Shown here: positions 6,301-46,786 of the stretch, one piece after another
Numbering within the stretch: position 1 is the first letter of the stretch
How the letters are laid out: each line of letters begins with the position of its first letter
DNA from: Schmidtea nova
Lineage: Eukaryota
Length of the DNA stretch: 64,000 nt
Direction of reading: 5' to 3'
Assembly (NCBI GenBank): GCA_044892505.1
Contig: CM097883.1
Location: 159,836,001 to 159,900,000 of the forward strand
Made by a program: the position numbers and the translations under genes
Notes under the pieces: model-generated
Databases searched by the model: none
What the model was told of the DNA's origin: nothing
What the model saw: only the letters and a program-made list of their open reading frames with translations

Positions 6301-7398
6301 TAGTGGGTTGTTGACCTTCAAGATGACCTTGACGTTGTTATGGCTCCCATCAACAGCTCAACACATAAAACATTAGTTTAACCATTTTGTTGCCCATCAC
6401 AATGTAACGTTGGTAATGCAAAAATGGGTAAATGTCCGCAAACAGTGAGCATCGAAAATTCGAAACTATGATTGACCGAACATCTCAGTGGGTTCAATGG
6501 CTATCGATAGAAGGTTTAGTGTCCATTTTTGTCACAAATTTAACGATTAATCTATGAAAATTCTTTGAAATTTTTAGTAATAAAAAGAAATAAATTAAGC
6601 GCCTCGGAACAGCTCACTTCACGGTCCGCTCTATAATCTCACTAAACCGAATTATTCAGAAGAGATTCTAAAATATTTTAGTGATTCGATAGATATTTTA
6701 TTTTTTATTGACTTCATGTTGTTATTGACCCATCAATCTCAAATATGGCAAACGACACGTTCAAACATGTAAATGAACAAAACAATTTTGATACGTATAA
6801 TTAAGTAAGGAAAATATAAAAAACATAGAATATATATCAATTTACAATCGGAGTCATGATTTCAGTTATCGATGGATAAATCAATAGTCTCTACCGAGAC
6901 TTTCCAAAGTTGTCCCAGGAGCCGGTCCTCTTGTCACCGTTTTTGGCGGGCACGAACTCCTTTGCTCGGTAGCCACTTCTTTGGGCGATCTATTTTTGAG
7001 TTCTTTGGTAATTGAGCTGGGACGACAGGCTCCTCCATTCGTACTGGGAACAATTCTAACGCAAGAAATCCGGATTTTGATGGTTATGGTGCTGACACTT
7101 TGCCGGTATCTATTCTCATTTGGGCGATTTCGGCATATTATAAGCTTCAATGCCCGGATCTAAAGCGCGTCTCGGCTGTCTGCTCATGTGGCAGCTTGTT
7201 CTGCTTCTGCATCTTCTCGGTGCAATCCACATTCGTCCACGTTGATTCTATTTTTCGGCACCGAGAACGGAACTTCTTTATACGCTCCGTCATGGTCCAG
7301 AGCTCTTCCCAGAGAAACTTCCTCTCCTCCTCCATCTCGGCAACGTGGATTATTAATTTCCTTATGCTCCTTTTCGTCTTAGTCATCTGGGCCAACAT
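6301..7398 (-). mobile_element. Decayed LTR 3' part of a second (divergent) giant-type LTR family: ORF-B homolog plus U5 element
   Basis: Pseudogene 7398->6863 (one frame, 4 internal stops) homologous to the peptide at 57373-57611 (PKKWLPSKGVRARQKR*QEDRLLGQL vs PKRWKPSKGVRVRRKRRQEARLLGQL). It is followed by the ~230-nt element 6535->6301. Confidence 0.65.
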
Positions 7399-7617
7399 TA
7401 CCTCCTTACCGTGGAAAAACTTTTTTTTTATGCAAACGTGTATTTCTTTCTTTCATAATTTGATATGTTATGTTGTCCTGGCAAAATAAAATGTTTTTCT
7501 AAGTGAAAATGAGTTGTCTTTTAGAAATTGTGAGGAAAATAACAAAAACCTGAATTATCGTACTTTTTTTAAAAAAGATTTTAAAATTTATTTTAACACT
7601 GCTTAAAATGTTCTATA

Positions 7618-18446: not shown

Positions 18447-18681
18447 TGGAGGGTTGTTGACCGTCAATATAACCTTGACGTTGTTATTGCTCACATCAAC
18501 AACTCAACACATAAAACATTAGATTATCCATCTTGTTGCCCATCACAATGTAACGTTGGTAATGCAACAATTGGGTGGGAATTTGCAACCAGTGAGCGTC
18601 GAAAACTCGAAACTATGATTGACCGAATATTTCCTGGATCCAAGGACTACCGATAGAAAGTTTAATGTCCATTTTTGTCCC
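18447..18681 (-). repeat. ~230-nt dispersed element (U5-like LTR end of the second family)
   Basis: Aligns with 6301-6535 (-), 57839-58072 (+) and a partial copy at ~1774-1830. Ends ...CAACAACCC(T/A)CCA. Confidence 0.85.
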
Positions 18682-20646: not shown

Positions 20647-21030
20647 TGCTGGTGTGTTGGTTAGATTGACAACTGAGATCATTAGGATTTTATATGTTAG
20701 GGTGATCTCGCCAACATAAAAACATTCCCCCGCTGACACCCATGATGTATCCCTAACTACTCATCATGTTGGTGCTGTGTCAACGTTGTGAAATGACAAG
20801 GCAGGTGAGCAACCTTTCGGCTACTATTCCCTTGTTTATTCACGGGTCCGCCACTACCGATAGAAGGTGTCTGTGGCTTTCTTTCGGTCCCACTTATGCT
20901 CTTTTCTATTGTCCTAGGGTGATTTAATCTTAGCGCATCTGCAGTTTTTCATGAATCCGGGTTTTATTTATATTCAATTCTCAGACATTCCACACACAAA
21001 CAAGACAAGTCAAATCATTCGTTTTATACA

Positions 21031-21036
21031 TTTATT
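21031..21036 (-). promoter_or_regulatory. Putative polyadenylation signal in the LTR
   Basis: AATAAA overlapping the ORF-B stop, followed ~25 nt later by GU-rich TTGTCTTGTTTGTGTGTGG. Confidence 0.55.
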
Positions 21037-21613
21037 TATAGTTTAACAATACAGAGGGTCGGATTACATTTAGTAGTTCTTGCTCGGATAGACCACTGAG
21101 CAAGTCTACCTCTATTCCTACGCGATCTGCATATGCGCGTCTCTCCCTGCGCTTTTTCGCTCCCAAGCGATTCCGTCTCTTTGTCCGTTTCGAGCCTTCC
21201 AGAATTATTGGGGATGTTGTGGTAGTTGTGATTGGGATGGTTTCTATTTCCGTTTGGGTACTTGTTGTCCTCGATATTGTGTCCACCCACCGATTAAAGG
21301 TGCTAGCCCTGATCACTGGGCGTAATTGCTCGGTGATGAACTCCTGGGTTGATGCCCTCAAGTAATTCGACAGCTCCATCTTTAGTGCGGCGACCTCCCT
21401 AGCTTGCTCGTCGATTGTTCGTTCCGCCCTGTATCTGGCTTGTAAGATGGCTTTAACCCTCTCCGGATTAAACCATGTTGTCTTAATTCGCTGGTGCTCC
21501 TCATTCAGTTGTCTCAAGCGACTCTCGAGGACACGAGATCGTGCTCTATGTTCGTGTGACTCTTGCTTGTAATTTCGATTGGGATTTTCGTCCATATCTG
21601 AGTAATGTATCAT
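21032..21613 (-). CDS. LTR-encoded ORF-B, 193 aa, coiled coil plus Arg-rich motif
   Basis: Open in the 3' LTR; KRTKRRNRLGAKKRRERR basic tract; homologous pseudogene at 6863-7398. Confidence 0.75.
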   Translation of the reverse strand: MIHYSDMDENPNRNYKQESHEHRARSRVLESRLRQLNEEHQRIKTTWFNPERVKAILQARYRAERTIDEQAREVAALKMELSNYLRASTQEFITEQLRPVIRASTFNRWVDTISRTTSTQTEIETIPITTTTTSPIILEGSKRTKRRNRLGAKKRRERRAYADRVGIEVDLLSGLSEQELLNVIRPSVLLNYK

Positions 21614-21790
21614 TAACTAGGATATATATGCATTGTTTGGTTTCTCAGTCATCATTTTATGGTTAAACAACTGCATTCCTATCCTTACTCATTCCTCATA
21701 CATCCCAAATCAAAACAAAAACCCTTTTAAATGGATACATATATTTGCGATTCACAACAGATATTCGTTTATTGGGTGTTGTCCTCGTGA

Positions 21791-22423
21791 TCAATTGTAT
21801 GGTCGTAACTCTTGATTGGCCGGGTTCTCGTCTCGGCGAATCCCTGTTTCATGGTATAGTTCGGGGGCTGGATTCCAACTCAGTTTGTTTTGATAAATGA
21901 ACACCTCCCAGAGGCGAAGGTCTTTGGGCTCGGGGTGTTGATCCACGGAAACACTGCCTGGGGCATTCGGGTAAACGAAGACTTCCCCAGTGTCACCACA
22001 CCGAGGCCTGTCTAGCAGCAAATACCCGAGTTGGCCGAATGCCTGCCCGGTCATCATTCCGGTGCTTAGTACCCAGCGGGGTTGTCGTGTTTCATCTACA
22101 AATTGATAGAACCATCTCTTGTACCCATCTTTGGTGGGGTTCGGGGAGGGCGTCCAATCGACATCACCTTCCCACCTCAGCTGTAGTTGGAATGCACAGG
22201 CGGGAATACTCGCCGCGGTGCTCATATGGGTCCTTGTCCATCGACGCAGGTGTCTACGTGCGGAGTTGAAAATTTGGCGTGGGGCCTCCTTCTCTCCTTG
22301 GATTTCGGTAGGTACTTTTGGTGTGACGAGGGAGCGGATGCGCCGTTTCCTCCGTAGAATGTACTCCTCTAATTTGACGGTTAGGGGTTCTGTCGCATCC
22401 TTTACGAGATATTCTGTTTTCAT
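21791..22423 (-). CDS. LTR-encoded ORF-A, 210 aa, unknown function
   Basis: Open 210-codon frame in both LTRs, GC-richer than its surroundings, with RRKRR, its own AATAAA after the stop and CAG-A-ATG at the start. Confidence 0.65.
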   Translation of the reverse strand: MKTEYLVKDATEPLTVKLEEYILRRKRRIRSLVTPKVPTEIQGEKEAPRQIFNSARRHLRRWTRTHMSTAASIPACAFQLQLRWEGDVDWTPSPNPTKDGYKRWFYQFVDETRQPRWVLSTGMMTGQAFGQLGYLLLDRPRCGDTGEVFVYPNAPGSVSVDQHPEPKDLRLWEVFIYQNKLSWNPAPELYHETGIRRDENPANQELRPYN

Positions 22424-24092
22424 TCTGTCCCTCTGAAATGGAATTTTAAGTTAACTGACAGACTCTATCATCGACCATCGATATTTATGTCGATCAACCT
22501 ACTTGGTTTATTGTTCTACTGGCCGTAGGCCTTAGTAGTTCGTACATAATTTACTAGACTATTGGTCGCAGTGTTCAAGTAGGTGGTGAATTTACTTGGG
22601 TGAGTTGATACACTCCGCAATTTCAGTCGGTTTTAGCTATGCTCATTTAGGCTGATTATTTACAATCAGATTTTTCGTTACATTAAATTTCTCATCGATC
22701 ATTTTTATTCATCAAACCTGGTTCATTCACAGAGCATCATTAGCAACTATCAAGATTCACGTCGCGGGAAAAATTTTTTGTAATCCCTTAGTCGACTACT
22801 GTGTCGAGAAACGCACTAATTTTTATCTACTATCGGGTCTGACTTTTCATGCCCTTTGTGGGTTATATGTGTATATCTAACAGCTCATTCGGTTCACTAC
22901 TGTGCTTTGGTGCTAATGTCTTTTGACCGCGATGCTACGCTTTACCTACCTCAATTCTCGTTGATTTTTATGTACTAGCACTCCTTGAAGGTACACCCCT
23001 CGTCACGGTACCTCATGCATATATTTTCCCTTGCGAAATGAGCTTTACCTCGATTTTATTTATGACCATTAACTATCACTCGATACCCTATCATCGTGAT
23101 GTATAACGTTTATACTAGGTCATCTCTACCTTGATTTAGTTCCTGATCATTAGGTCTTACTCGATACCCTATGTGCATTTAACCCCTTCCGCTTTCCAAA
23201 TATTTAGTACACCTATAGTCCCGCCGCATCAGCACCTCACAACCGAAAGGTTGTGTTGCGCTGAGAGGCCCGAGAATCCGTCAGGCTGTTAGGCCTCCGG
23301 AAAACCTTATGGATTTTAATATGATTAACAATTATAATTATGAGGGTTTAAAGTAACAATCCAACACACAACAATTACCTTTTATTTTTCCTTCAAGTTG
23401 ATTTTACAATGTTCTCAGTGCTCAACTGCAAGATACACTTGGTAAAAATGACATTGTCAAATACTGATTTGACTTCAGTATTTATACTGAACCGGTGTTG
23501 TTGGTTAGCCAATCAGCATCGAGTATGTGTGTATGTTTGCTTCATTTTTCATGTTGTCGGCTTTTTGCTGCCTAACTTAACTTGCCGATTTGTTTGGTTA
23601 ATCATGCGGTAAGTTTTTCTTAGTCATCAATTTATTTTATTTTATTTTTGTTTTAGGTCTTTGGTGACATCCGCCCACGCGCTGTCATATTCCAATTTTA
23701 TCTGCTTCGCATGAGTGAGTTTTGAAGATTTTTTGTTGTTTTGATTTATATTTTATTTCTTTTAGATGTTGCCGCCTATTTTGTTACGCTTTGGTGTTGG
23801 TAATTTATTTTGTTGTTATTCTGTATTTAATTTATTTTATTGATTGTATATTATTTTCAGATGCTGCTCGATTTGGCTGGCCCAACATCACTCGGGGTCC
23901 CCTAAAATTGCGTCCCGCAATTACATGCATATACCTACATCAACATACATAAAAAGTTCGTGACAGAACTTACATGCAAAACCACATAAGGTGGTAGCTT
24001 TTATACACATTTATACAAAGTCACACATTGTCATTGTCATGTTTATATTGTTTATACACAGTTTCATGTTTCTGGCTCATAGGGGTTGATTT

Positions 24093-24617
24093 TCAGGTCC
24101 TTTCACTGGTTGACTGCATTTCGTATCGGGCTTGGATTTGTCGTAGATGACTTCTCATCCTTTGTTGGGTTTTTGCTTCTCTTTTGGCGCATCTACACAT
24201 TATCGTTTGTTGTTGTTTGAGGCTTCTGATTCGGTACAGGGTATAGGTAATCACGATGATCAGGATGATTGTCAATATTGTCATTGTGACTATTCCAACG
24301 ATGATCCATCTGTTTCGGATTTCGGATTCGATTTGGGTTTGACCTTTGATTGGCTTTAGGTGATCTTGAAATGTTTTATGGATTTCTCGGATCTTCTCGA
24401 TTTGACTGAATAGGGTTTGTAAGGGTTTGCGATGATCATGACTGATCCTCATTTGTCGGATTAATTGTTTCAAGTCTTCTCTGACTTCGTTTAGTTGTTT
24501 TTCGATCTCTTGGGATATTTCGTTTGACAGGGTTCTTTGGATTTCGGTTGTCGAACAGTTCATGATTATTGCTGTTAACATAATCGTTAGGATTGATAGG
24601 ATTTTGAGCCAGATCAT
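24093..24617 (-). CDS. Cargo ORF, 174 aa, predicted type I membrane protein
   Basis: N-terminal hydrophobic signal, coiled-coil ectodomain, TM WIIVGIVTMTILTIILIIVITYTLY, basic tail. Confidence 0.75.
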   Translation of the reverse strand: MIWLKILSILTIMLTAIIMNCSTTEIQRTLSNEISQEIEKQLNEVREDLKQLIRQMRISHDHRKPLQTLFSQIEKIREIHKTFQDHLKPIKGQTQIESEIRNRWIIVGIVTMTILTIILIIVITYTLYRIRSLKQQQTIMCRCAKREAKTQQRMRSHLRQIQARYEMQSTSERT

Positions 24618-24690
24618 TTCTGATTATTCTACTGATTAATACAGGTTACATCGATTTGTACATTTTTACACACGGATTTTTCGCCTCTTT

Positions 24691-25851
24691 TTACACATCC
24701 GTCTCCTCTGGTTCATGGAACCCTTCGTCTTGGAGTTCCATTGGTGGTGGTGGTATAAATGGTAACCACACCACTATACTTCTCCACATTGCAATTTCAT
24801 CTTGATACGTTCGAGAGATTTGTATCTCTTCATCTAACAGATACTCCATATAGTCTGATTGTTCGCTTAGAGTTTCGATTTGTCTTTCCATTTCTTCCAC
24901 TTTCCTCTTCAGGGCTTCTGTTTCTGTTGGTCCGGTTTCTACTTCTATGGTTTCTTTCTCTGCTTTCAGGGTTCGTATTTGTTGTTTCAGTTCCTCGTTT
25001 TCTTTCGTCAAATTCGTTATGTTTTCCTCGTAAGCTCGGTTTGATTCCGCATGTCTTTCTTTCACTGCTTTCAACTCCATTTTCTTTTGAGTCACCACCC
25101 CTTGATAACCATTTACATCTCTTTCCAGACTTTCTTTTTCCCTGATCAACTTTTGTCTTTCCACTTCCTCTTTCTGTCTAATGCCTCGCATTTCTCCATT
25201 TATCATCTGTATTTGCCATTGCGTTTTCTTTAGTTCCTTTGCCTGTTCTCGAATAAATCGCTGTCGTTTTCGACTCCATTCTTTGTTTGCTTGTTCTTGT
25301 CGTTTTCTCTGTTCCAATTCCTCTTTCAATTCGTCTATCTCTTGATATAATTTCCAATCTTTGCTGTATGCTGTCCTTCCGATTATCTCTTTGGCTTCTT
25401 TATACACTCGTTTCGACTCCATCTTCCAATGTCTCGCTTGAGTTTTGATTGCTAGTATTTTTACCTCCATTTTTTCCTCTTGTTTCTCCCTCTCTTCTCT
25501 TCGCGTTTTCTTCATATTTTTATAATGTTCTGCTTGTTTTCTCATCAATTGATAGGTCTCTTCTATCTTCTGTCGACTTCGTACATTCGTTCCTTCAAGC
25601 TTCTCTATTTGTGTTGTCAGTTGTACTATCTCTTTATTCACTTCCTCGAGTTCCAGTTGATATAACTCCATTTGTCTTTCGCATTTTAGTTTCTCGTAGA
25701 AATTGTTTGTCATTACTTCGTTTAATTCTCTGGTTCTTTGTTCCACTTCCATTTTACATCTACTTTCGATTTCTCTTTCTATTGCTTCTCGTTCGTTCGC
25801 CATCTCGTTTCTCGTTTCATCTTCGATTACATGTTCATTTGCGTTTTCCAT
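24691..25851 (-). CDS. Cargo ORF, 386 aa, long coiled-coil protein ending -ETDV
   Basis: E/K/R/Q-rich heptads over most of its length; C-terminal PPPP and EETDV. Confidence 0.8.
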   Translation of the reverse strand: MENANEHVIEDETRNEMANEREAIEREIESRCKMEVEQRTRELNEVMTNNFYEKLKCERQMELYQLELEEVNKEIVQLTTQIEKLEGTNVRSRQKIEETYQLMRKQAEHYKNMKKTRREEREKQEEKMEVKILAIKTQARHWKMESKRVYKEAKEIIGRTAYSKDWKLYQEIDELKEELEQRKRQEQANKEWSRKRQRFIREQAKELKKTQWQIQMINGEMRGIRQKEEVERQKLIREKESLERDVNGYQGVVTQKKMELKAVKERHAESNRAYEENITNLTKENEELKQQIRTLKAEKETIEVETGPTETEALKRKVEEMERQIETLSEQSDYMEYLLDEEIQISRTYQDEIAMWRSIVVWLPFIPPPPMELQDEGFHEPEETDV

Positions 25852-25940
25852 TCTGTAATTTACAAATTTACGCTTGTTATACTATATGTTTATTGTTGTC
25901 GTCGATTTTTACACTTTATTTACAGGGTCGTTCACTCTGA

Positions 25941-27353
25941 CTACTCTAACCATCCTTTCGTTGACTTCGTGTTCATCACTGTTGTACTTGTTTTCTTTTC
26001 GATCTCCAACTCTACATATAAGTTGTCGTCGTACAACATTTCCCACATTGTTTGGTGTGGTATGAATTTTGGTTCTCCAGTCGCTAATGAACATTCTGTG
26101 GTTGGTCTTTTGTAAGCTTCGTGCTTACCATCAATCTTGAATACTCTCGCTATTGTTTCTTTCGAGTTTCTCACTCTCATTATAGCCTTTGTTTCTAGTG
26201 GCCATTCTAATATGTCGTCGTAACCACCTTTACACAACGCAAAGAATAATGACACATGCGTTTCCTTTCCTGATCCATCTCCATTTGGATAAATTCTCAT
26301 CCGGACTTTGTATCCGTTTTTCCACAGATAGAATGGTGGACTTGTTACCGACACTTGACTTCCTGCTTTTGCTGCTGTGAACTTTTCGTTGAAGTTCTTG
26401 ATTTTCCATATATATGGTGCAACAGGTAAACTCTCGATATCCTCTGCATCTCGCACCCACATTTGATGTCGCACGTTTACTTCTTTTACTAGCGTCTCTA
26501 TGACTTTGATTTTCTCCATCATTTTCTCTCTGGTGAGCTCGAATAGCTCTCTTGTTTCTAGTAACAGCTCCGTCATTATTCTCTGAGATTCGATTTCTTT
26601 TCCCAGCTTCTGTATGGTTTGTTCCATTCCGTTCAAATTTGCTGTTAACATCTCGGCGTGTTGTACTGTTTCCGTTTCCAAATGCTCTTTCATCTCTTTG
26701 CTCGTTTTCTTTACTACACATCCTTGTTTACTCCATACGCACTTTCTTGGTCTTGATTCGCACTGTTCCCAATGTTCTCTCAACATCACTTCTTCTCCGG
26801 TTCCGCAATTACTTGGACAAATTCCTCTGAATTTTCCACACACTTTCTCTTCTGCTACGTTGAGATGTTCTGTTTCGATTATCTCTCTTGTCTCTCTTTG
26901 TTCGCAGTATTGACACTCTATTATCTCTGCTTTGCACTCATCTTTGTGATTTTTCGACTGCTTGATGGTTATCGTCTGTTGACACTTTTCACATATCGCT
27001 TTCTTGTTTTCACATTTCCCCAGATGTTGTCTTAACTCGATTATTGGTCCTTTCCATTCACATGGTTGGTTTGTACACTCTGTTTTTATCTTCCAGATCT
27101 CCTTTTGGATTGCTTTGTCTGGTTTCGTCTCGTTGATTAGTAGTTTATCGTCACACTCTGGACATTTTCTTGTCTCACTTTCACTGATTATTTGCAATAT
27201 ACACTTGGTGCACATCCTGCATCCACATTCCGTTTGTCTCGGTTTTAACAGTAAATTTTTACACTTTACACACGTCACATTTACTCCCCATTGTCGATTC
27301 TCTCCTCTTAGAATCTCGATTGTTTGGTAATCTGCTTCGTTTTCTGCTCTCAT
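25941..27353 (-). CDS. TRAF: Cargo ORF, 470 aa, TRAF-like protein (RING, TRAF zinc fingers, coiled coil, MATH)
   Basis: RING CVKC..KPRQTECGCRMCTKC..CPEC; Zn finger CTNQPCEWKG..HLGKC; MATH YIWKIKNF...SPPFY...GYKVRMRIYPNGDGSGKETHVSLFF...YDDILEWP. Intronless. Confidence 0.93.
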   Translation of the reverse strand: MRAENEADYQTIEILRGENRQWGVNVTCVKCKNLLLKPRQTECGCRMCTKCILQIISESETRKCPECDDKLLINETKPDKAIQKEIWKIKTECTNQPCEWKGPIIELRQHLGKCENKKAICEKCQQTITIKQSKNHKDECKAEIIECQYCEQRETREIIETEHLNVAEEKVCGKFRGICPSNCGTGEEVMLREHWEQCESRPRKCVWSKQGCVVKKTSKEMKEHLETETVQHAEMLTANLNGMEQTIQKLGKEIESQRIMTELLLETRELFELTREKMMEKIKVIETLVKEVNVRHQMWVRDAEDIESLPVAPYIWKIKNFNEKFTAAKAGSQVSVTSPPFYLWKNGYKVRMRIYPNGDGSGKETHVSLFFALCKGGYDDILEWPLETKAIMRVRNSKETIARVFKIDGKHEAYKRPTTECSLATGEPKFIPHQTMWEMLYDDNLYVELEIEKKTSTTVMNTKSTKGWLE

Positions 27354-27443
27354 TCTACAACAATATTTACATCAATTTCCCCATGTTTTTGATTTTTTCT
27401 GGTTCTTTATTTACACGTATTTACACAATTTTCCGCTTATTCA

Positions 27444-27794
27444 CTATACATCCTCAGTTGAATCTGGCTCTGGATACACGTCTATCTCATTTACAATCCA
27501 GCTCGTCCAACTATCTGGTATCTCTTCCTCTTCATGTCTCGTTAATCTGTCAATTTCTTCTGCTTGCCAGTTGTTCACTTCATTCAATGTTCGGTTCTCG
27601 TTCTGTAATTCGTTTATCTGTAGTTGTTGAATCTCGATTTTGTTCATTGCTTCGAAATTACAGTTATAACTCTCGGTTAATAATTGCGTTTTTGCCGTCA
27701 ACTGGCTCTGTAATTCATTTACTGTTCTGGCTAGCAGGTCACATTGTACTTTCCATCTTGTCATCATCGACATCTCTGTGGTTCCTTGATTCAT
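27444..27794 (-). CDS. Cargo ORF, 116 aa, short coiled-coil protein
   Basis: Heptad pattern; acidic C-terminus YPEPDSTEDV resembling the end of the 386-aa ORF. Confidence 0.65.
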   Translation of the reverse strand: MNQGTTEMSMMTRWKVQCDLLARTVNELQSQLTAKTQLLTESYNCNFEAMNKIEIQQLQINELQNENRTLNEVNNWQAEEIDRLTRHEEEEIPDSWTSWIVNEIDVYPEPDSTEDV

Positions 27795-27916
27795 CGTTTT
27801 TCTAGATTATATACATCATTCTCTTTTTCTGTTTTTATGTTTTATAATATTTATACCCATACGTATACGGTTATGCATTGGTTTTTACACTATTATTTAC
27901 ACTCATATTCCACCCT

Positions 27917-30900
27917 CTATACAACTATTACTGGTTTTCCTTCGTACAGTTCCTCGTCCTCGATCTGTACCCACATCTCTTCGTGTTTTGATCGTCTTTT
28001 CAGCTCTTCTCGTACTTCTTTTGGTAGTTTTATGTTGTAATTCGTGACCTTTACGTCTGGCCATTTTACTGCTATGGTCTTATTTCTCATGCCATATCTC
28101 CAACATACTATCATGATCGTTATCAGCGGTATACACCCTATGAATACTCCCATGCTGATTAATCCCATTATTGTTTTCCCAATGCTCATCTTCGGAGTTT
28201 CACTTTGGTTTGTCATCACGCCATATTGACCTTTCCATTCTGCTTCCCATTGTTCATATTGTTGTTGTCTCTGTCTGACTTCTTCGATCACTTTCTCTGG
28301 TTCCCATCTTTCTTGTTGGTTTGGTAATTTTTCCTCCTTCTCGTTTTGTTCTCTCTTCTGACTAAATTCTCGGAATTCTAACTTTTTGATTCTCCTCTTT
28401 ATCGGCGTGTAATAGGTTTCGCACCTTTCTTGTGGATTTCCTTGTGCGTCCACTTCTTCGATTGCACACACTTCGTATTCTGCGTTTGTTTTCAACTTCC
28501 TCATTTCTACCTCGATTATTTCTCCTTTATCATTTGATGTCTTTTGACAGTTTCGTGGGGACTTTCCCATACTGTTTGGCATTAATGTCCAACAGATTTC
28601 TAGGACCTTTTTATGGATCTTCCATATTATCAACGTTGTTGATTCCGGTTCTTTTTCTATTGTCGTCCTTTCTGTTGTTACCTGTTGAACTCCTTGACTG
28701 TTGGCTGTCGTGGTTCTTCTTGACTTTCTTTTCCTCTGTCGACTTCTTCCCATTTCGATCGTTCTTGTTCCGTTAATTTGCTCTGGCGTCTTGTACAGTT
28801 TGCACTCCAGGCTTCTTTGTATTATTTCTCTTATTCTTCGGATTACGCAGATTTCATATGCTTGTCCGACTTCGAATCCATTTAGTTGAAACGGGATTCC
28901 TCGTTCTCTCGTTCTGCATTGCGGTATTACGTTGCTGGTCGGTACTCCGATGTATTTTCTCCAACACATCCCAATTGTTCTCCGACCAATGCTTTTTATC
29001 TCCACGGTTACTACTTCATTCGCAATCGTTTCTTGATCTTGTTTCTTTCTTTTTGGGAACTCAATGATCTCCTTTGCTTGGAACACTTTACACTCGCTTG
29101 TTCCTGGTCTGTTTCCGTTTGCTGCTTTTTCCATGAGACATAGTTCACATTTTTTATCTGTCTCTATTTCTGTTATTTCGATTTCTTCATTTGTCTCTGC
29201 TTCCCGACTTTCTCTTGTCTCGCTGATTCCAATTACTTCATTATTTCGTCCCCAACATCTTCCATTCGTTGTTCGTTGATCTTGGATGTTTACTAACGTC
29301 ATCACGCTGATATCTATGTCTTCCATGATTCTCTTAATGAGGATTAATATTAATGCTACACATATCAGTTCTGGTTGGAATGTTAATTTTCCCGCTGGAT
29401 TTTTGGTTATTCTTTCTTTCTCTGTTCGGTTTCTGATTCCTTCTTCTGCTTCCGATTGATTCTTCCCTTTCTCCGATTCCACTTCTGTTCTTCTCGTTGT
29501 CTCTTCACTTCTTTTCCCAATCCATTTCTGTATCTTCAGCGCTTCCGTTGCTTTGTATAATTGACAGGCAGTTACTTGAGGTGCTTTTGGTTCTCCTCTC
29601 TGCTTTACTGCGCATATTATGTATGACTTTTCTTTCTCCAACCCTTTGATTTGGATGACGTCTCGCTTCAAGTCTGACAATATACATTTCAGCGTATCGT
29701 TTTTCTTCAGGTTTTCTTTCCAGCATATTCTTTCGTATACTTCGTTTCCTCTGATTATTTCCAGCGTGACGTATTGTTTCTTGGCTTCGCCTTGTCCGAT
29801 GATCGTTATCAATATCGCAATACACAACATTTCCGGTCTCAAAAGTAGACTTCCTGCTCGTTTTCCATAGTTCGTACTTTCGTCTTTTGTTCCTCTGTTT
29901 TCTCGTTCTTCGGCTTCTTCCTTTTTGTCGTTTCTCGTTGGCTTCGGTTCTTCTTGTCTTTCTTTTTCATTATCCTCCGTTCTTTTGTTGTCATTGTCTT
30001 CGTTGTTCTTTTCGTTGTTACTTTTGTCGTCGAAATCTTTGTAACCACCCCCTGGTCCTTTCGAAATGTCGTCCTCGACATTAATTTCTTTAATCAATCT
30101 TTCATACGCTTGAACCGCGAGTGTGCTAGACTCGAATTCACGTATTTCCATATCCTTGGATGGTTCTATGTTTTCTAGTCCACTTTGCTTGATCGTTTCT
30201 TTGGCATTTGCCCATTCATTCACATATTTTCTGAACAAGTCTTTCCATCTTCCCGTTCGTTCCTGTTCTTTTGGGTTGTTCGTAAATTTCAAATCTCTTC
30301 TCTTCAAGAATTCTTCTACTATCTCTGGCTTTTTGTGTCTTAGTAACGCGCTTCTGATACACCAATTCTGATTCTGTTCCATATGGTCATTGATCTTGAA
30401 CACTGGTTCCTTGGTGATCGGATTCACCCATGTTAGTAATGCTCTCGTTTTCTCTATGTCGTGTATCATTACCGTCAGACTGAAATTCTTTACGTTATTC
30501 GCCAGATATTCGATATCATCTTGTTTCTTGATGGACTTTATGAACTTGATCATCTCGAAGTTGTTCCACTGTATTGCGATATCTATGATGGAATTATTCT
30601 TTCCATTTTTCTCTTCGATTTTTGCTCCTGCTTCGTATAACTCGTTTAGCACTTTCAACTTCGTCTTCTTCCTTGCTGCGATTATCATGATTGTATCTCC
30701 ATTATCATCAACCGTATTCATGTCTGCTTCGCACTTGACCATCGCTTTCGTTATTTCTAGCGCTTCGTTTTCTTTCTTTCGACGTAATGCCCAGTGTATC
30801 GGCAATCTCCCATCCTTTGATAATAGGAATGTTACTGGCATTTGATTTTTGATCGTTTCTATGTCACTCTCGTTATAATCTCCTTGTGCGTATCTGTGCA

Positions 30901-33900
30901 CTTTCTCTGTAATTGCTCCTAGTATCTCCAACGAGTTTTTATTCTCCTTGAATTCTGATAGTCTTTCCTGCGTTTTTGCTACGATTGCGTCTAGTCTCTC
31001 TTGATTATCAGCTTTTGCATTGAACAACACTGCTTTGCTTCTTATTCGCGTTTGCATCTGTTTCATTCGTTGGTCTTGATACACTGCTTGTCTGAAGAAT
31101 TGTCCATACTTCAATGCTTCCATCAGCTCTTTATATCGCTTGCTTATTTCTTTGTGCTGCTTTTGGATGTCATAAAAATGTTCGAAGCTCATATCCGGAT
31201 TCCATTGCTTATCGCACCATTTCTTGATTAATCCGAATAATTCTTTCTTTCTGTCTTCCAACTTGTATTCTCTTGGGTTCTCGCTGACCCGTAGCGTATC
31301 TCTCGCTATTAACACTGCAAGTGTTTTTGGATCGTATGTTACTTCTAGTAGATGTTTCAGTAACGCATTTTCTCCCTTTGTGAATACTTCATTACAATCT
31401 ATGACCCACGAATCTCCTTCTGGTCTTTTCCACTTTAGCAATATCCTCCAGGTTTTACTGTTCTTTACCCCGATTGCTTGTTTCATGATCGATCCTCTAG
31501 TTAGTTCATCGATTTCCCACGTGGCATTTTCCGTAATATACTTCAGTATTCGGTGATTCGCTCTATCAATTGCATGATTCAGGAACGTTCGTCCTTCTTT
31601 ATCTTTTGCCATCCAACTCGATCTGGTGTTTCCGAATAGCTCGACTATTTCCTCATCTCTTCCATGAATCGTCATCATCATAAGTGGAGTGATTCCTTCC
31701 CAATTCACTTTGTCAATTTCTCCTCCACCTTCGAGTATCATCTCTACGATCTCTTTCACTTTTTCGTTCCCACTGTGCTTGATTGCATTGTGCAACGCGG
31801 TGTTACCGTCTTTGTCTTGTAGATTCAATGTTTGAGGGATTTCCTCTAGCAGCGTTCTTGTTATTGGATGTGCTGTTCTATCCTTCGCATAATCCATTAC
31901 ATTCTTTCGAACTTCTGACAGTATATTGAAATCGTGCCACCATTTCCATTCTGGTATGATTTCTCTGGTCCTCTTTGCCAGTTCTTTGATGTTTATTGCT
32001 TCTCTTCGGTTGTCTTCTAGACTTGTTTGCAGCTTTTGTTGTACTCGCAACATATTAATTCTCGCCGTCTGTGATCTTGTCATCACCCTTTTCTCTGGTG
32101 ATAGAGTTGCTGTCTTTGGTATTTTTCTGCATCGACATGCATTCACGTATATTGGTCTTACCAATGGATTGTTCACCAATCGTACTCGCACATTGTTTTC
32201 GTTTACGGTTGTTATTTCGTATGGCCCTTTGCCTGGTCGTTGGAGTTTCTTGACCGTACCGGGTATTATCTCTGGTGTCTCGATTATCACCCAATCTCCA
32301 ACTTTTAAATCATGTGCTTTCACATTCTTTTTCTGATCATGTAGATCCTTATAACTCTCTTGATAGAACTTGATGTTTAGTTCCGCCGTTTTCCAGATTT
32401 CTTGCATTCTTTCTTTGAACTTTGTAACGTAATCGTCAACCTCCATGTATTGTGATAATGGTGGTTGGTATTCTAAATCGATCGGTAAGTTGCAATCTCT
32501 TCCGTACATCAGTTGAAATGGACTTAGCTTTGTTGCCGCATGTATTGACATTCTATATGCCATTAAACACAAGTTGATGTATTCGTCCCAGTCAGTCTGA
32601 TGTTTGCTGACGTAATTCGACAACATGCGTATCAATGTTCCATTGAACCTTTCTGTTTGACCGTTCGTTTGTGGATGGTATGGGGATGTTCGTAATTTCG
32701 CAATTCGGAAGTAATTCGTGACTTCGTCTAATATCTCACTCATGAAATTTGTTCCTTGATCCGTTAGGATTTTCTTTGGTGTTCCGTATCTGCAGCATGT
32801 CTCTTCCACCAATATTCTCGCGACTGTTTTCGCTTTTTGATCTGGTATTGCGAATGCTTCTGGGAACTTTGTTAGATAGTCCGTGACTACTAAGATATAT
32901 TGATTCCCCTTTAAACTTTCTGGCAGTGGCCCAACTACATCCATGGCTATCGTCGCCATTGGTTCTGCAGATATTGGCATTGGTTTTAGTGGTGTTTTCC
33001 ACTTCGTTCCGACGTTCTTTCTTGTTGCACAGGTTAAGCAGTTCCTTATCCATTCTTTCACATCATCTTCCATGGTTGGCCAAAAATACTTTTGTCTCAA
33101 TCTCCCGATTGTCTTTTTCGCTGACATATGTCCGCCTAATTTTCCGTCATGATATTGAGTCATGATTTCCTTTCGCCTATTCGCAGGTAAGCACATTAAT
33201 CTCCGTTCTCCATCTTGTATCAATAACCATCCTTTTTCCATCACGTATCTATGTTGGTATTTTTGCATATGTTCGCGCAACGTTTGGTTCTTGCCGAATA
33301 TTTCTATTTCCCTTTCTTTCAGATACTTGCTGATCAATCCCAACTCCTCATCTTCGAGTTGATCCTTCCTTAATTCGCTGAAATCCAGATCTTCCGCTAT
33401 TAGTGCACATATTTTTAGAGCATTCAGGTTCACCAACTCCGGAAATGTAAACCTTGACATGCAATCTGCGTTTGCATTTGCTTTTCCTGCTTTAAACTTT
33501 ATGAATGGCGAGTATTCTTGCAACTGCATTGCCCAACGCATCAATCTACTTGATGATTCTTTATGTTGACCTAACCATACTAGCGGTTGATGATCCGTCG
33601 TGATATATATTTCATGACCCCACAGTAGGTACTTGAAATGCTTGATTGCCAATATTATCGCATAGGCTTCTCTTTCTGTGACTGAGTAATTCCTTTCATG
33701 TTTTCTGAACGTTCGACTATAATATCCGATTACTCTCTCTTTGCCTTCTTCATCAAATTGGCCTAGTACTGCTCCTGCTGCATATCCACTTGCATCTGTT
33801 GCCAACAAAAATGGCTTCTTAAAATCTGGATGGACCAGTATTGGTGCTGTAATCAGCTTATCTCGTAATGTTTCAAATGCTGCTTGCTGTTCTATTCCCC

Positions 33901-36900
33901 ATATAAACGACACATCTTGTCTTACCAATTCTTGCATTGGCTTTGATATTCCTGCATAGTCCTTGATGAATTTTCGATAATATCCACACAATCCCAAAAA
34001 TTCTTGTATTTGAGTTACTGTCTTGGGTGGTGGACATTCTTTAACTTTCTCGATATTTCTTGGATCTGGTTCTTTTCCTTTTGCTGATACAATGTGACCT
34101 AAGAATGTCACTTTCTCTTTTGCCCAATCGCACTTTGACGGCTTCAATTTCAGCTTCCATTGCCTTAATTTCACGAACACATTTCTGATGTCTTGCAAGT
34201 GATCCTCGAATGTTGCGGAGTAGATCAATAGATCGTCGATGTACACCATGCATTGTTTTATGCCATGTGTTACGAAATTCATGCATCTCTGGAATGATGC
34301 TGGCGCGTTTGTTAACCCAAACGGCATTTTCTTGAATTGGTACAGATCTCGTCCGATTGTAAATGCTGTCTTCTCTTTATCCTCGTCTTTCATTTTGATC
34401 TGCCAATATCCGCTTTTTAAATCTAGTGACGTGAAATAAGCTGCTCCTTGTAACGTCAACAACATTTCGTTTATGTCTGGCAGTGGGTACGTATCTCTTT
34501 TCGTAACTGCGTTCAATCGTCTGTAATCGATACAGAATCTCTGAGTTCCATCCTTCTTTTTCACCATCACCACTGGGAATTGCCAGGGTGAGCAACTAGG
34601 TTCGATGACCTCTGCATCTAACATCTTTTGTACCTCTTCTTCTGCCACTGCTTTTTGAGCTTCTGCCAATTTGTATGGTCGTAATGCTATTGGCGTTTCG
34701 TCCGTCAACGGTATCGTGTGTAATGTTACATCACAGGTTCCCAGATCTAAATCTGATGCTGCGAATATATCTTTATATTCCATCAACAGTTTCTGTAACT
34801 GTTCTTTTTGTCGTTCGTCCAACAACACACTGTCGATTTTCCATGGTAATTCGCCTTTGCTTTTCTCATTCTTGTCTGGTATTTCGATTTCGGACATGGG
34901 TGTCAATTTACCCAATCTCTCATTCTCGTATATTATCTTGTCCTCTTCGTCGAAATTTACCAGATTGATCGGTATTTCTCCTTCTTGATTTATCGTAACC
35001 AATTCTCTTGCCATTGGTAATTCTTTCTTTGCTTCGAACTTTTTACTTGGTTCGAATATCATATCTCCTTTGATTGTTGAATCGATCTTGACATAGCACA
35101 TCATTTCGTGTCTCGCTGGCACTACTATTTGTTCCGCACTTGCCACTTTAACTTTCATCCTGCAGATTTTTCCTGTTCTATCTTTTAGTTTCATTGCTCC
35201 TAGATCAATTACGATTTCCTTGAACAGGTCGGGCATCAGGTCAGTTCCAATAATACATGGTACACTCAGCGATGGTATTACAGCGATGTACGTGTCGATT
35301 TCTGCACCTCGATGCTTAATTTTTACAAACCATCTTCCGGCTACTTCTACTGTCTCTTGACTGCACGCGATTACATGTACGTTCGTCTTCTCAATTTCTC
35401 CTTGGTTTTTCTCGGGTATATAGTTAATGTCGATTGCCGAAATATTCGCGCCTGTATCGATCATTGCTTCAATTTCTCTTCCGTTTATTTCTACGGTTGT
35501 TGTTAAGATTGGTCCCATGTTTGTGGACATAACCGCTATCGTGTGCGTGTCTTCCAATGAGTCTACGCTTTTACCTCGTTTTACTTTGCATCCTTCTGGA
35601 ATTATCGGGTATATACTTGTCATCGGCATCATCTGCATCATATTCGGCTTTGCTTTATATATAGGTTCGTTATACATTGACTGAGGTGGAGCGCTGTATC
35701 TCCAATTCTCAACTGTACTCTTTTCGTTGTATTGTGGAATCTGGTTTATATTCGCTTGTCCTCCTCGATCGTCATCATCATCGTCATCATTACTTGAATC
35801 ATCTTGTGTTCGATATCCTCTCACTCTTTCCCATAATCCTTTCCTTTCCTTCTTCAGTTGTCGTCTTGCTTGTTCATCTTGCATTATCTTTTTGAATTTT
35901 CTTCCGACATCTTCGTTAGTTCCTTTCATTTTTGCAAGTATCTTCAACAACCTCTTTATTCGATGTATGTCTTTCGAGTGTCCATGTAACACCATCGTTT
36001 TCGCAAGGAATGGTAAAAACCCTACTACCATTTTCCAATTCACTTTCTTTTCTCTCTTGTAGATATCGAAACACGCTAACATTTGCGTTATTATCACTCT
36101 GACGATTTGTATTATCAATATAACACCCAGTATTCCAGCCATCATTTGTCCAAATATCAGGAATCTTCCCCACATTGCCTTCATCATATTTTCTGTGGCC
36201 TTCTTGAAATGTGCCGGTGACAACAACAGTTCGTAATTCGGTCCTTCTCGATAATTCGTTCCTCCCGTTATCGTTACGATATTTGACAGTAATGCTTCTC
36301 TTCTTGCCGGGAATAATATATTCTGTCTTGCTGCTTCCAGATCTTTTGGACTATAGATTCCGTTGTTTGAGACATCTACGTCACTGAACTGTCTATCCTT
36401 TGACAACTGCATTAGCTCAAATTCTCTTGGTGCTAATACTTCAGTTCTTCCTGGGAACATGACCCATTTGCCATCTGGCTTCTGATAAAGCGGTCCGTAC
36501 GCGTTACTACAGTTGAATGGATTTGGTTCAAAACCTGGTGGATTGATGATTCTCGTCACCGGTTGAACGTATCGTACTTTTCCTTTGTAATCGATTTCTA
36601 GTTCGTTTGTACATTGTCCAGGTTTCAACTGCGTTGTTGCTGCTAGCGATGCGTGTGTCTTTTCGCAAATGTATACATACATTGCTTCTCCGACCACTCT
36701 TCCGAAATGTCCTTCTCTCAGTGGTAATAACGGCATCGCGCTATCTGGATTCGTAATCGCTACGGCCAACTTTGTCTTCAATATTTCTCGATTCAGTATA
36801 CAATCGTTATTTATCAGATCATAGTACACTTTTTGCAATGAGGCTTGACCTCTATGGAATAAGAAATCCATTTTATTATTCACATACAAGTGTAGCTTGA

Positions 36901-39900
36901 TATCCATTGTGTCGATCTTGGGTTTCGCATTCGGCACTTCTTGTTTCGACACGTATATTCCTGGATAGTTTGTTTCGTATACTGTTGTACTGCACTTAAG
37001 GGTTGCTTTCCCTTTTATGAATCTCATGCCTACATCCTGATTTGTGGTTATCAACACTGTTGGTGTGGTTCTCATCTCTATTCGTTTTTCTCTATGATCT
37101 GGTTTCAATTGTCTTTTATTCTCTAAAGCCTCTTTGAGATGTTTTGCTCTAGCTTTGTCATCATCGTCTTCTTCTTGGAAGGTTTTTCCTTGAATTTCGT
37201 CGAACTTTGCTCCTTGTAGCAGTTGTAATTGACATTCGTTCACTTTTGGTTTATACACCAAAGTTGACATTCCCGTTTGACACATGCTTCTGTCAATTTT
37301 ACACATGGATAACGTTTTCATTTCTCCTGTTGTTGGTTCGAAGAATGCTTCGTAGCTTTTCAGTTCGACTATATACGTATCCATTACCACTAAGTTGGTT
37401 GCAGGTGCTCCAAATATCGGATAGGTTTCTCCTTGACAATATCCTTCTCCTCCCGTAATCCGTCCTGCTACATAATACGTCTGCTGCAACATCATTCCTG
37501 GCTTTCCTTTTATCTTGATTTTGTCTCTCGTTGTCACTTCTCCATGTTTGAATAATGCTTCACAGTCTTCTCCTTGTAACACGATTGGTTCTCTTTCGGT
37601 TCCTGGCATGACAATTGCTGAATAATGTCCTCTACCACAATAGAATGCGAATCTCGTCTTTTGCACTTTGCATTCATTCACCATTGTCTTTATTAGTTCT
37701 GCCTCTTGATATACGTGGTACCATTGTTCTTTTTTGATCTCTTTCAATTCTACTGGAGTTGCATCTTTGCATTGCTCCGTACCTCTCAATGAGTACTTTT
37801 CTCCCAACTTCATTTGATCACAGTCAAATACTTCAAATGTTGTTACACCCTCTGTGCTTAACAACCATACTAACATCATCATGATTATCGAGTTTAAATT
37901 CAACGTCGATCTCCCGTTTCCTTGCATCGTTTGTCTATTCTCCATTTCTCTCAATACTCCTTCGAGTTTCTTTCTCATAACGTTAGACCCTTCTTTTGTC
38001 TGGTTCTCTTTTATGAACTTTTCCCATCCTCCTTTTCTGAGGATATATGGTTCAATTTCCTTCTCGATAATCATCGCCGTATTTTTAATATGTCTTCCCA
38101 TCGGACTTGACTTCGGGCTTCCTCGGCTTAGCGTTAACAAATTGTATATTGTATACGCGATTGCTACCAGATATTTGCTGTCCGTCTCTGCTCCGTTAAG
38201 TAGCCTTTTTATCAACATCGTGGTTCCTTGCCAATCTAGATGATTCGATTTTGTTTTTGCCTTTATCAATTCTGGCATAATCGGTGCTATTGCATTGTGT
38301 AGCATCCTTGCCTTTGTACTGGGTTCGTTTATTCGCCACAAATTCTTTAATTCCGGGTCAATTATTGCTAACACATCCATTATCGTTTTGGTGAGCCATT
38401 CTTCTCCTTGGCAGACTTGATTCTCTTCTTTTCCTCTGATTTCTGCGATTTTATCCAGTTTCTTCAAGCAAATCTCCCATTGCTCTTGTCTCCTTTCTTC
38501 CCTTGTCTTTGGGATTGTTGTTGCTGGATCTATCTTTGGTCTTCCTCTTGGTCGTTTCTCCATTCCCGTTCCGGTTTCTACAAATCTCGCTGCTCTTCCT
38601 GTTTCCTCTGTAACATCTCTTCCTTCGTTCGCTCGCTGTTCTAACCATCTTTCCATTTCTTGAGTAAACTGTGGTTGTTCTTGTTCGTCTTCCGAATCGT
38701 TTACCATTTCTATGACTACCTCCTGTTCCACTCCTTGATCGTCGATTTCTGCTGGTGACGTTATTGGCATCTCTACTATTCTGTCAAAAATGTTCGCCGT
38801 TGGTTTTTGAGTCAGTTTCGTTAATTCTTCTATCGCTTCGTCACTGTCTGTTAGTATCTCATCCACGTCATACGCTTCTGGCGGTGTTCTCTCTCTCGTT
38901 TTTATTGGTGTTGTCCTTGCTTGTCCCGAACTTGTTCCTGGGGTCATTGTTGACTTCATCGGACTTGGTGTACTCATGCTTCCTTTCGCTTTCTTTTCCT
39001 CTTTAAACTTCAGTGGTTGACCCACTATCTGTGCTACTGTTAACGTATTCATTAGATCCAATTGCACTGGTGTCAGCCAGATTTCCAAATTATTATCCAA
39101 CGATCGTCCTTGATGTTGCAGGTGGAATGGTAGTTCGTACATCAGTTTCTCTTTAACGCTTTTCACTTTTTCTGTTAGCATCACCCGAAACTCTTCTTTT
39201 CTTTGATTCGGATACATTATCCTCAAATGTATTTTCTGTGGCGTTTCTTCTGCAAACTCTTTGTTTCTCCACTTTTTTATTACATCGTCTAGTTGCTCTG
39301 GACACCACTCGTTAACTCTCTTGTATTCTGCTATCGCTTTAGCTACTTTTCTCAAGTTCGTTATGTCTTCTCCATTTGTGATTATGAATTGTGCTAAGCC
39401 TTTTATTGTTTGTCTCTTTCCCCGAGTATTTCCTCTCAATAGCTCGATCAATTCACTCGTTTTCTGTTTCTCCAATTCTGCCCATATTGCTGCAGTTTCT
39501 GGTCCGTCTAAGTCCGTTGGTAATAACCTCCTTGTTACCATACATATCCGTTTCGTATTCCGTTCGTGTCTGTCTTCTCCTTCCGGATCTTCTTCGTACA
39601 CGCCTCCTTTCACTTTCCAACATTTCTCTTTGTTATCCCATTGTTTCTCTACTGGCGTCAATCGTCGTCTGTTAAGATCCAATTCTCCCAAGATTGTCTC
39701 CCATTCTGGCTTCATCTGCCAGTTCCGATAGATTTCTACTATCTGCCTCAGCTTACGCATAACGTCCTCTTGTCGTTTCTTTTTCCTTTCCTCATCTCTT
39801 GGTGTTGCTCTTTGCACATCATCCATTCTGATGACATGTATTGTCTGATAATTATCCCATATGCCGATTTTATACGCTCGTCTTTCATCACGTTCATTCA

Positions 39901-42208: not shown

Positions 42209-42244
42209 GTTTCTTTTTCCTTGTTCTTCATCTTCTGTCGTTTT

Positions 42245-42802
42245 TCACATTACCGCCGTAATTCTCATGTCGTTCATTGCCATATGCAATTCGAATAGGT
42301 TGGCTGCCTCCAACGCTTCATCTACCGTTTTACATCCTTTGCATCCCACTTGTGCTCTGATGTCAGGTCTCCTGAGACCTCGTACGAATAACGCTGTCAT
42401 CAATTCTTCGTCTACTGGGCTTCCTCTATTGAATGCCAGTTTCGCCAACTTTCTTAATTCACTTGCGTACACCGCATTTGACTCATTTCTCCTCTGTTTT
42501 CTTGCTGAGAACTCATCGAATGCTTCGTTCAACACTTTATTTATCCCAAACGTCTGTTGGAAGAACTCCTTGATTGCTTCCCACGTTCTGGGTGGATTAC
42601 TTCCCGATCTCTTCTCAATATACAGATCCAATGCGCTATCTTTCAAGTATAGCGGGATTCGATTCGCTAACGTTTCTGCACTCCATCCGCATATATCCAC
42701 GAATATGCCAAATTCCTTCAGGAACGTGTCCAATCTACTGGCGTCTCCATTAAATGGTTCGCCCTTGAATTTTTCTCTTAGATCCTCTCTGTGATCACTC
42801 AT
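42245..42802 (-). CDS. gag: Gag capsid domain of giant element, in frame with the polyprotein across one TGA
   Basis: Retrotrans_gag-like (PFNGD...TWEAIKEFF...RKQRRNESNAVYASELRKLA...LFVRGL). TGA at 42245-42247 is followed by 12 sense codons and then the polyprotein ATG. Confidence 0.88.
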   Translation of the reverse strand: MSDHREDLREKFKGEPFNGDASRLDTFLKEFGIFVDICGWSAETLANRIPLYLKDSALDLYIEKRSGSNPPRTWEAIKEFFQQTFGINKVLNEAFDEFSARKQRRNESNAVYASELRKLAKLAFNRGSPVDEELMTALFVRGLRRPDIRAQVGCKGCKTVDEALEAANLFELHMAMNDMRITAVM

Positions 42803-43678
42803 CCCGATTCCACTATCTTGGAATACTGTACTAGTTTTCTTTACTTCTAGTTCACCACTTGTTTCTGAATTCGACTCTTCTTCTTCGCTACTCTCTGTTT
42901 CGTTATCTCTTGATTCGCTTCTTGTTCTGTTTTCCCTGACTAGTTCACTGTCTATCGTCTCTACTTCGTTTTGTACTTCTAGATCTTCTGGGGTTTCTTC
43001 TTGATTCTCTTTATTACTCGAATTGTCGCTGATCTCTACTTGTTTGTTCTTTTGTTGCTTAGGCTTGTTACCTGTTCTTGTTCTTTTTGCTGCTTTTCTC
43101 TCTGCTTCCGTTAAGATTGGTATTATACCTGATCTTGTTTCTCGTCCCTCAATTTTGTCTATTCCTCAACTTCTTATATTCTCAATTGATTTTCTACTCC
43201 GCTTTTGTTTTGCTTCTTCTTTGCTTTGTTTCCTTTGATTGCTCTGACTGCTAGATTGCTTTGAATTGCTTGATTGATTTGTTTCCTTAAAACAAATAAT
43301 CACTTACACGATACGTCCCCGTTATCGTGTTTCTCGTCCCTCTCACGGGTGTAGTCATAATTCATGAAGATCCCCATTTTTCCCATTTCCCTTGATTTTA
43401 AGTCTATTTAAATTATCTATGCAGTCGCATCAATTATCTATTCTTTATCAAATACACCAATTACTTTTCCCCAGTTCCCCAATTACTTTGTCGCTCAGCG
43501 CTCTTATTATCCCCTTTACTTTTCTCAGGCTTCTCTGGCTCTGAGTTCAAATCCCCCTTATCTGTCTACTACTCTATTTCCCAACTATTCGCTTTATCTC
43601 CTATTCGCACTACGTTTACTACTTCATTTCAATTCTCATCTCTACTCACCTTTACTTCAACTGACATCTCTCGTTGGC

Positions 43679-44141: not shown

Positions 44142-44468
44142 CCCTCCACTTACTCACTTTACTTTGCTACTCCTCCTTGTATGCATACTTTAACATCATT
44201 AGGCCACATAATCAGCTTTACTCGCATTTATCAATACCCAGGTGCGCACCTTCAACTCTCTCGTTATTAATTCGGTTTCTTTCAACCCTTATTCCTCATT
44301 ACTCGCTATTCATTTTCACTATTCATCATTTATCCTCATTATTATTTATTCATCTCCATTATCGCTTGTTGATCTTCACTATCCGGATAGTTTTATGCGT
44401 AATTTAGTCCTCATCTGCCTCACTTCGTCGTCTTTCTCGTGGGCTTTTACTCAATATTTTATTTCGAA

Positions 44469-46780: not shown

Positions 46781-46786
46781 AATTTA

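Follow-up and report, generated by a model that had tools for sequence, protein, structure and literature searches.

Coding sequence within or overlapping the LTR or its U3 region is known for MMTV sag, HIV nef, and the bel region of foamy viruses. Sections of one account describe MMTV sag as singly spliced and place the RexRE of HTLV-1 in the 3' LTR (PMC12789967). Among Gypsy-type elements, Cer1 of Caenorhabditis elegans encodes CERV, which an excerpt of PMC10309623 describes as spliced, oligomeric, lineage-restricted, and required for export of the genomic RNA. The Burro elements of dugesiid planarians, as characterized in a section of PMC6431247, fit the element analyzed here in size and gene content. 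Our window, a stretch of 64,000 nucleotides from Schmidtea nova (contig CM097883.1, 159,836,001 to 159,900,000 of the forward strand; positions below count from its first letter), holds this element, and its LTRs carry a reading frame, ORF-B. What we describe is a well-supported gene family together with an RNA element; for ORF-B itself, a function is proposed only.

The Host Element and Its LTRs

20647..50028, minus strand: giant Gypsy LTR element of the Burro type, 29.4 kb, TG...CA termini, 4-bp target duplication
20647..23887, minus strand: 3' LTR, 3241 bp
46787..50028, minus strand: 5' LTR, 3242 bp
46763..46780, minus strand: primer binding site (PBS), complementary to the 3' end of tRNA-Pro(UGG) of the same genome

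Membership in the Burro type was borne out by a length of about 30 kb, long LTRs, and an env-like fusion domain placed between gag and PR-RT-RH-IN in the polyprotein. The interior codes for gag, a viral fusion glycoprotein, PR, RT, RH, IN, ankyrin repeats, a TRAF/MATH protein, and a RING protein. The two LTRs are 99.75% identical, and their eight differences comprise seven substitutions and one 1-nt indel. The PBS sequence had 2,964 exact matches in the genome, compared with 0 for a reversed control. The pattern of tRNA-Pro(UGG), the tRNA that primes Burro, matched 900 times genome-wide, and at one locus (L191, G000:C1:459.6 Mb) its genes stand in a tandem array with a period of 308 bp. In the window's copy, gag is cut off from the remainder of the polyprotein by an in-frame TGA at 42245, a position without a stop in two other lineages examined. 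Upstream of gag, the leader contains two tandem-repeat arrays at 43669-45025 (units of 19 nt and ~85 nt). A retroelement of a different RT/integrase type is also present in two copies, 9257-12914 and 55068-57373, which are 90% identical.

ORF-B Is a Protein-Coding Gene under Purifying Selection

21032..21595, minus strand: ORF-B, 187 aa counted from ATG 21595, the conserved start, to the stop
47172..47735, minus strand: ORF-B copy in the 5' LTR, frame broken near its start by a 1-nt indel at 47719
21598..21601, minus strand: splice-acceptor-like motif, AG two bases upstream of the ORF-B ATG
21791..22423, minus strand: ORF-A, second LTR-borne ORF, 210 aa, likewise with an acceptor-like AG

The open frame on the minus strand spans 21032-21616 and includes RLRQLNEEHQRIKTTWFN. 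An earlier note on this DNA had started ORF-B at 21613, which is not the conserved start; the ATG kept across copies is that at 21595, present in 54 of 54 copies of the ORF-B family (F1). The genome search gave 9,811 candidates, 150 of which were scored (identity 80-100%), and 137 of these 150 had no internal stop. For the analysis of selection 66 copies were taken and 54 kept; the 12 left out were second LTRs of the same insertion, and stops were present in two of these 12.

Purifying selection, for which the earlier note had suggested dN/dS as a check, was evident: dN/dS was 0.10 over the 54 copies, chosen by protein similarity. The regions differed, the Thr-rich linker having a value of 0.35, the helical part 0.07, and the basic tract together with the tail 0.04. 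Variants common to several copies gave 0.09 versus 0.42 for singletons. Four of the five other frames of ORF-B had values of 1.2-2.6, while the mirror antisense frame gave 0.20 for ORF-B, and 0.20 and 0.26 across sets, which is the usual shadow. As a check on this choice of copies, pairs were drawn from open-frame LTRs that had been selected through the PBS; dN/dS was 0.04-0.13 in six of nine pairs, and the other three were saturated. ORF-B is a real protein-coding gene under purifying selection, and the LTR gene is held under such selection in several Burro lineages.

The second frame, ORF-A, is rich in Trp and Arg, mostly open among 150 scored copies (identity 67-100%), and without a match in Pfam; LTRs of lineage F4 likely carry distant counterparts. 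The window's LTR (20647-23887) is a subfamily recombinant, with ORF-A and the start of ORF-B from one subfamily and the ORF-B linker from another.

An AG occurs at the acceptor offset of ORF-B in 54 of 54 F1 copies and in 22 of 26 copies of a second LTR family (F2, below). If the second, conserved ATG is taken as the start of ORF-B, a YAG lies no more than 10 nt from the start ATG in all seven accessory ORFs, compared with 197 of 709 sense ATGs. A conserved splice donor was looked for, and none was found. Judging from the acceptor motifs, ORF-B is likely expressed from spliced RNA, and their pattern points to splice acceptors as the means by which seven or more accessory genes of Burro are expressed. 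Because all seven accessory ORFs have a YAG, the full-length RNA is likely rich in acceptors, and it would therefore need an export route.

Relationship between ORF-B and Other LTR Lineages

6863..7400, minus strand: F2-family pseudogene with four stops (F2 profile E 1e-35), in a decayed Burro LTR ending near 6301
57357..57611, plus strand: C-terminal remainder of an F2 ORF, with another retroelement (55068-57373) in place of the 5' part

The stop-broken frame at 6863-7452 includes RIKKFRSRCRKIESTWTN and has its stops at 7149, 7140, 7086, and 6936; the F2 ORF on the plus strand is cut at 57373 by the second copy of the RT/integrase retroelement. The earlier note had joined ORF-B and both these loci into one family through pairwise alignments. 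The pseudogene and the 57-kb copy are indeed homologous (Smith-Waterman score 160, as high in 0 of 1000 shuffles). The direct alignment of ORF-B with the pseudogene turned out to be at chance level (score 41, reached by 121 of 1000 shuffles), as did that with the 57-kb copy (score 43, 73 of 1000).

F2 is an abundant LTR family with a 184-aa ORF; 150 of 3,795 candidates from its genome search were scored, and dN/dS of the ORF was 0.11 (25 of 26 copies, selected for long open frames). F2 LTRs are Burro LTRs, with the same PBS following the LTR end and gag-env-pol interiors adjoining. The ORF was found in LTRs of two elements with gag, env, and an RT of 91-92% identity (L166 and L172) and in both LTRs of a third (L133). 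Interiors bordered by F2 have an RT 91-92% identical to the window's, but a PR only 53% identical. The pol beside L072 was set aside as proof of F2 origin, its RT being 52% identical and possibly part of a nested element.

Three new lineages, F3, F4, and F5, have LTR homologues of ORF-B with about 30% identity (E 1e-10 to 1e-17), although their RT is 90-96% identical. Among the first 70 PBS-anchored LTRs, searched within 1.5-2.1 kb, 10 matched the ORF-B profile, 7 matched F2, and 53 matched neither. The profile search that the earlier note had named as a test of its alignment was significant for F3-F5 and borderline for ORF-B against F2. In the latter comparison, hhalign assigned a probability of just 8-14% and aligned the basic tract alone; in global mode, the Trp motif was aligned exactly as in the earlier note, and block shuffles reached the global score in 0, 0, 1, and 3 of 60. 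These values, together with the unlike Trp-to-Gly spacing (104-116 vs. 91), would suit two proteins of separate origin that each came to combine a coiled coil with a basic tract, in matching positions of the LTR. We consider such convergence improbable, as position, length, acceptor offset, and the order helix, break, helix, linker, basic helix are all alike, and an outside protein links the two groups. A search of a library of 1.84 billion proteins returned three matches, of which one, the unnamed protein P0001 (E 1.4e-4), is credible; P0002 and P0003, repeat proteins, were set aside. P0001 beat all 500 shuffles against seven of seven representatives of the ORF-B group and F2, and against the F2 profile block shuffles were as high in 6, 3, 43, and 115 of 500. 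With P0001 added, the match between the ORF-B and F2 profiles rose to E 4e-4 (local, over 128 columns) and 8e-5 (global). A motif of Gly, a basic residue at +2, Arg at +4, and an aliphatic residue at +14 was present in 45 of 45 aligned proteins of both groups. Position, architecture, the basic motif common to both groups, and the bridging P0001 make homology of the F1 and F2 ORFs likely. The claim that divergent LTR families have in common an LTR-borne protein with a coiled coil and a basic tract, conserved and under selection, and placed beside a conserved structured element, is supported.

Protein Architecture

21350..21571, minus strand: predicted parallel coiled-coil dimerisation region, with an invariant W-F-x-P helix break near 21475
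21137..21190, minus strand: basic tract, 12 K/R in 18 residues, running into a predicted helix (dN/dS 0.04 with the tail)

The AlphaFold models of the ORF-B and F2 proteins (mean pLDDT 75 and 80, pTM 0.3) have the same layout: two long helices, parted by a break directly behind the conserved Trp, are followed by a disordered linker and then by a basic helix. Residues 8-81 of ORF-B were modelled as a parallel homodimer with a score of 0.49 (best control 0.00) in a test where coiled coils may score from general likeness; contact agreement between runs was at least 76% and pLDDT at least 73. In calibration, 21 of 30 solved pairs attained the mark and none of 23 single chains did. The eukaryotic figures were 17 of 29 for pairs, but just 1 of 7 for pairs lacking an older relative, and 0 of 30 for single chains. 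The models predict that ORF-B dimerises as a coiled coil and bears a basic arm.

The basic tract has 10-12 K/R per 18 residues in nine of nine proteins, 3-9 of them Arg, and in this it agrees with the Arg-rich motif of the Rev/Rex/Rem/Rec adaptors; pI is 9-10 in the ORF-B-like protein of every lineage. The Arg-rich tract that the earlier note had reported near the C-terminus is basic in all three of its loci, but Arg-richness is not general, since the tract of F5 is Lys-rich (3 Arg in 18). A pattern scan for CRM1-type Leu-rich export signals, which atypical signals would escape, found none conserved and counts no higher than in shuffles; the proteins of L129 and L182 had zero such patterns.

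Neither Rev, Rex, Tat, nor any other family was matched in Pfam, PDB, or fold searches. Searches with ORF-B, its alignment, and the F2 alignment gave nothing at E<=0.01 among proteins of ~100-350 aa; the ESM Atlas held nothing at >=0.9, and Foldseek nothing at E<=0.001 in viral and PDB sets. In terms of sequence, the family is without a named relative. ORF-B was rejected as a member of the Rev/Rex/Rem/Rec family, having no sequence or structural homology to known members, and as a Tat, which would have Cys-rich and core domains ahead of the basic tract, because it has no Cys and no Pfam match.

LTR-Terminal RNA Element and Leader Block

20672..20883, minus strand: conserved LTR-terminal element, 3' LTR copy; four of its helices covary, and it has a GNRA loop
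46812..47023, minus strand: LTR-terminal element, 5' LTR copy, directly upstream of the PBS
6314..6530, minus strand: F2 terminal element, covariance-model match E 9e-6 (rough)
57843..58059, plus strand: F2 terminal element, covariance-model match E 1.4e-6 (rough), LTR end at 58072
18466..18676, minus strand: F2-type terminal element, covariance-model match E 3.5e-7 (rough), no adjoining ORF match
45480..45710, minus strand: a further conserved block of non-coding sequence, within the leader, predicted to fold as a long branched stem-loop

About 210 nt of the LTR end are alignable across all lineages, and the common "U5-like" element of the earlier note was found again as a homologous LTR-terminal element 150-350 nt downstream of all three loci. 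A covariance model built without F2 sequences, with rough E-values, recovered the three F2 terminal elements of the window at full length and found F2 copies in 12 of 12 loci. In the four helices, defined from the alignment of 16 non-F2 sequences, 97.9% of cells were paired, and 16 of 24 pairs had changed on both sides. Kinship inflates counts of this kind, and the 16 rows stand for about six lineages, but the changes are numerous. The covariation score was reached by 0 of 500 shuffles, slid controls paired in 30-46%, and the hairpin loop was GNRA in 16 of 16. The element covaries as an RNA structure and is predicted to fold. A pseudoknot between the loop and a downstream CCCTA, whose bases are invariant, is possible, as is, judged by eye, an HTLV-type poly(A) arrangement. 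Two Rfam matches were both due to chance, and additional pairing of the terminal element with tRNA-Pro was no better than in shuffles.

Covariation in the leader block was weaker than in the terminal element (13 of 60 pairs). The block is 85% identical in a lineage whose adjoining RING protein is 40% identical. It is a candidate packaging or response element and an equally possible target of ORF-B.

Elements Lacking ORF-B

The interiors of 25 elements were examined, and nine of them had Burro gag, RT, and IN; coverage of L128 comprised the 5' LTR end and 20 kb only. An ORF-B-like gene was present in five of these nine and absent from four. Two of the four have intact polyproteins of 4,893 and 4,942 aa; the other two are F1 copies with no match over 29.7 kb that have kept their 3' accessory genes. 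Considering that elements without the ORF have intact polyproteins, ORF-B is not needed in cis, which agrees with a regulator that acts in trans or with a factor of accessory use only. In ORF-less F2-type LTRs, the last 245 nt are 94-98% identical, the middle is shorter, and the ORF is gone. The terminal element persists where the ORF is gone, so it has or had a job independent of the ORF and does not depend on a linked one.

An abundant non-autonomous Burro type (on G000:C1) has no gag, env, RT, or IN and keeps PR and coiled-coil ORFs. TRAF/MATH is present in most of them, and those that were translated also have ankyrin, BIR-like/RING, and membrane ORFs. They were seen beside L133, L134, L139, L140, L135, L124, L121, L146, L187, and L189, and their terminal 245 nt are common to autonomous elements without 3' accessory genes, such as L136. 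A division of labour between autonomous helpers and non-autonomous cargo carriers is possible. Moreover, L123, L126, and L132 are Burro derivatives of ~11-12 kb with gag only; the ORF is absent from their LTR ends, and the terminal element is intact.

Proposed Function of ORF-B

The reading that we favour, tentatively, is a Rev/Rex-like role in which ORF-B helps Burro's own unspliced RNA to leave the nucleus. It is preferred because an RNA with many acceptors would face an export problem, and because a basic protein, modelled as a dimer, occurs together with structured elements. ORF-B would be made from spliced RNA through the acceptor at the LTR and would dimerise through the coiled coil, leaving the basic helices exposed. 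These may bind the element's own structured RNA, either the LTR-terminal or the leader element, and unspliced genomes so bound would be helped out of the nucleus in the manner of Rev and Rex. Protein from copies bearing the ORF could then act in trans on copies without it. The Rev/Tat-like regulator of the earlier note thus keeps its selected LTR gene beside a structured element, while it lacks a conserved export signal and homology to Rev or Tat; the Lys-rich tract of F5 and the retention of the RNA element in ORF-less LTRs also argue against a strict Rev reading. A wider hypothesis, which we find rather doubtful, is that Burro elements are invertebrate complex retroviruses with their own Rev/Rex-type pair, the protein being supplied in trans to an ORF-less majority. 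The recipients would be ORF-less autonomous elements and cargo-carrying satellites that keep the RNA element.

The bZIP motif consists of a basic region with an invariant Asn followed by a leucine zipper. ORF-B might, as a second and unlikely explanation, be a DNA-binding activator or anti-silencing factor of its own LTR, comparable to foamy-virus Tas or to bZIP proteins, with the coiled-coil dimer placing two basic helices on duplex DNA. The predicted dimer and the 25-residue basic helix would suit this, the hydrophobic residues conserved at +14, +21, and +24 after Gly in 19 non-F2 proteins resemble a short zipper, and rapid divergence among lineages fits sequence-specific recognition. According to part of PMC8532177, SMEDWI-2 silences Burro in planarians. 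However, the main coiled coil is N-terminal and separated from the basic helix by a 30-residue linker. Membership in bZIP itself was rejected: bZIP_1 matched 1 of 19 members (E 0.028) and no tested C-terminal segment, and the Asn is not conserved.

It is less likely still that ORF-B, in the way of the element's TRAF, IAP-type, and ankyrin cargo, targets the host, for instance by suppressing piRNA/RNAi defence or by modulating nuclear or nucleolar processes. The gene is optional in cis and present in non-autonomous elements that keep mainly host-modulating genes, and its basic tract could be only a nuclear localisation signal. Nevertheless, there is no sign of adaptive evolution (dN/dS as given above, both overall and in the basic tract), and the constant position beside the terminal element would be left unexplained. 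An oligomerising helix with a basic arm is a common design of capsid-associated proteins, and pI is high in all lineages, but a minor particle or packaging protein that condenses genomic RNA non-specifically is very unlikely, as CCHC knuckles already exist in gag-pol and the gene is missing from elements with intact polyproteins.

Comparison with Known Systems

Our literature search found no description of Burro LTR ORFs, although the original Burro paper may annotate them; an excerpt of PMC11410931 contains nothing on LTR ORFs, and the giant-element section of PMC6431247 is silent on ORFs within LTRs, on acceptor motifs, and on RNA structure of the LTR. That section's Burro/GYPSM1 elements of dugesiid planarians resemble ours in size, gag-env-pol polyprotein, fusion glycoprotein, ankyrin, MATH/TRAF, and accessory ORFs (PMC6431247). 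To these, the most gene-rich LTR retrotransposons described, our results add a protein family without a named relative and a covarying RNA element. The expression of downstream genes and the genome export of giant elements become testable through one protein and two RNA targets.

The coding sequences of MMTV sag, HIV nef, and the foamy bel region lie in or overlap the LTR and are expressed by splicing, as ORF-B may be. The proteins are unrelated, and the Burro LTR differs in carrying two ORFs, which many replicated copies have lost. HTLV-1 Rex/RexRE, MMTV Rem/RmRE, and HIV Rev/RRE, in the parts of PMC12789967 that describe them, pair small, basic, oligomeric, spliced proteins with structured elements, located for RexRE and its like at the 3' LTR as beside ORF-B, whose own splicing and oligomers are predicted (PMC12789967). 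ORF-B differs from them in having no sequence or fold match and no conserved export signal, in lying wholly within the LTR, and in its predicted long parallel coiled coil. CERV, as an excerpt of PMC10309623 presents it, has 517 aa, exons in common with gag, a Cys loop, and a Rossmann-type domain, whereas ORF-B, with 187 aa and located in the LTR, has none of these features. If it is Rev-like, ORF-B would join CERV as an export factor of Gypsy-type elements with an unrelated architecture.
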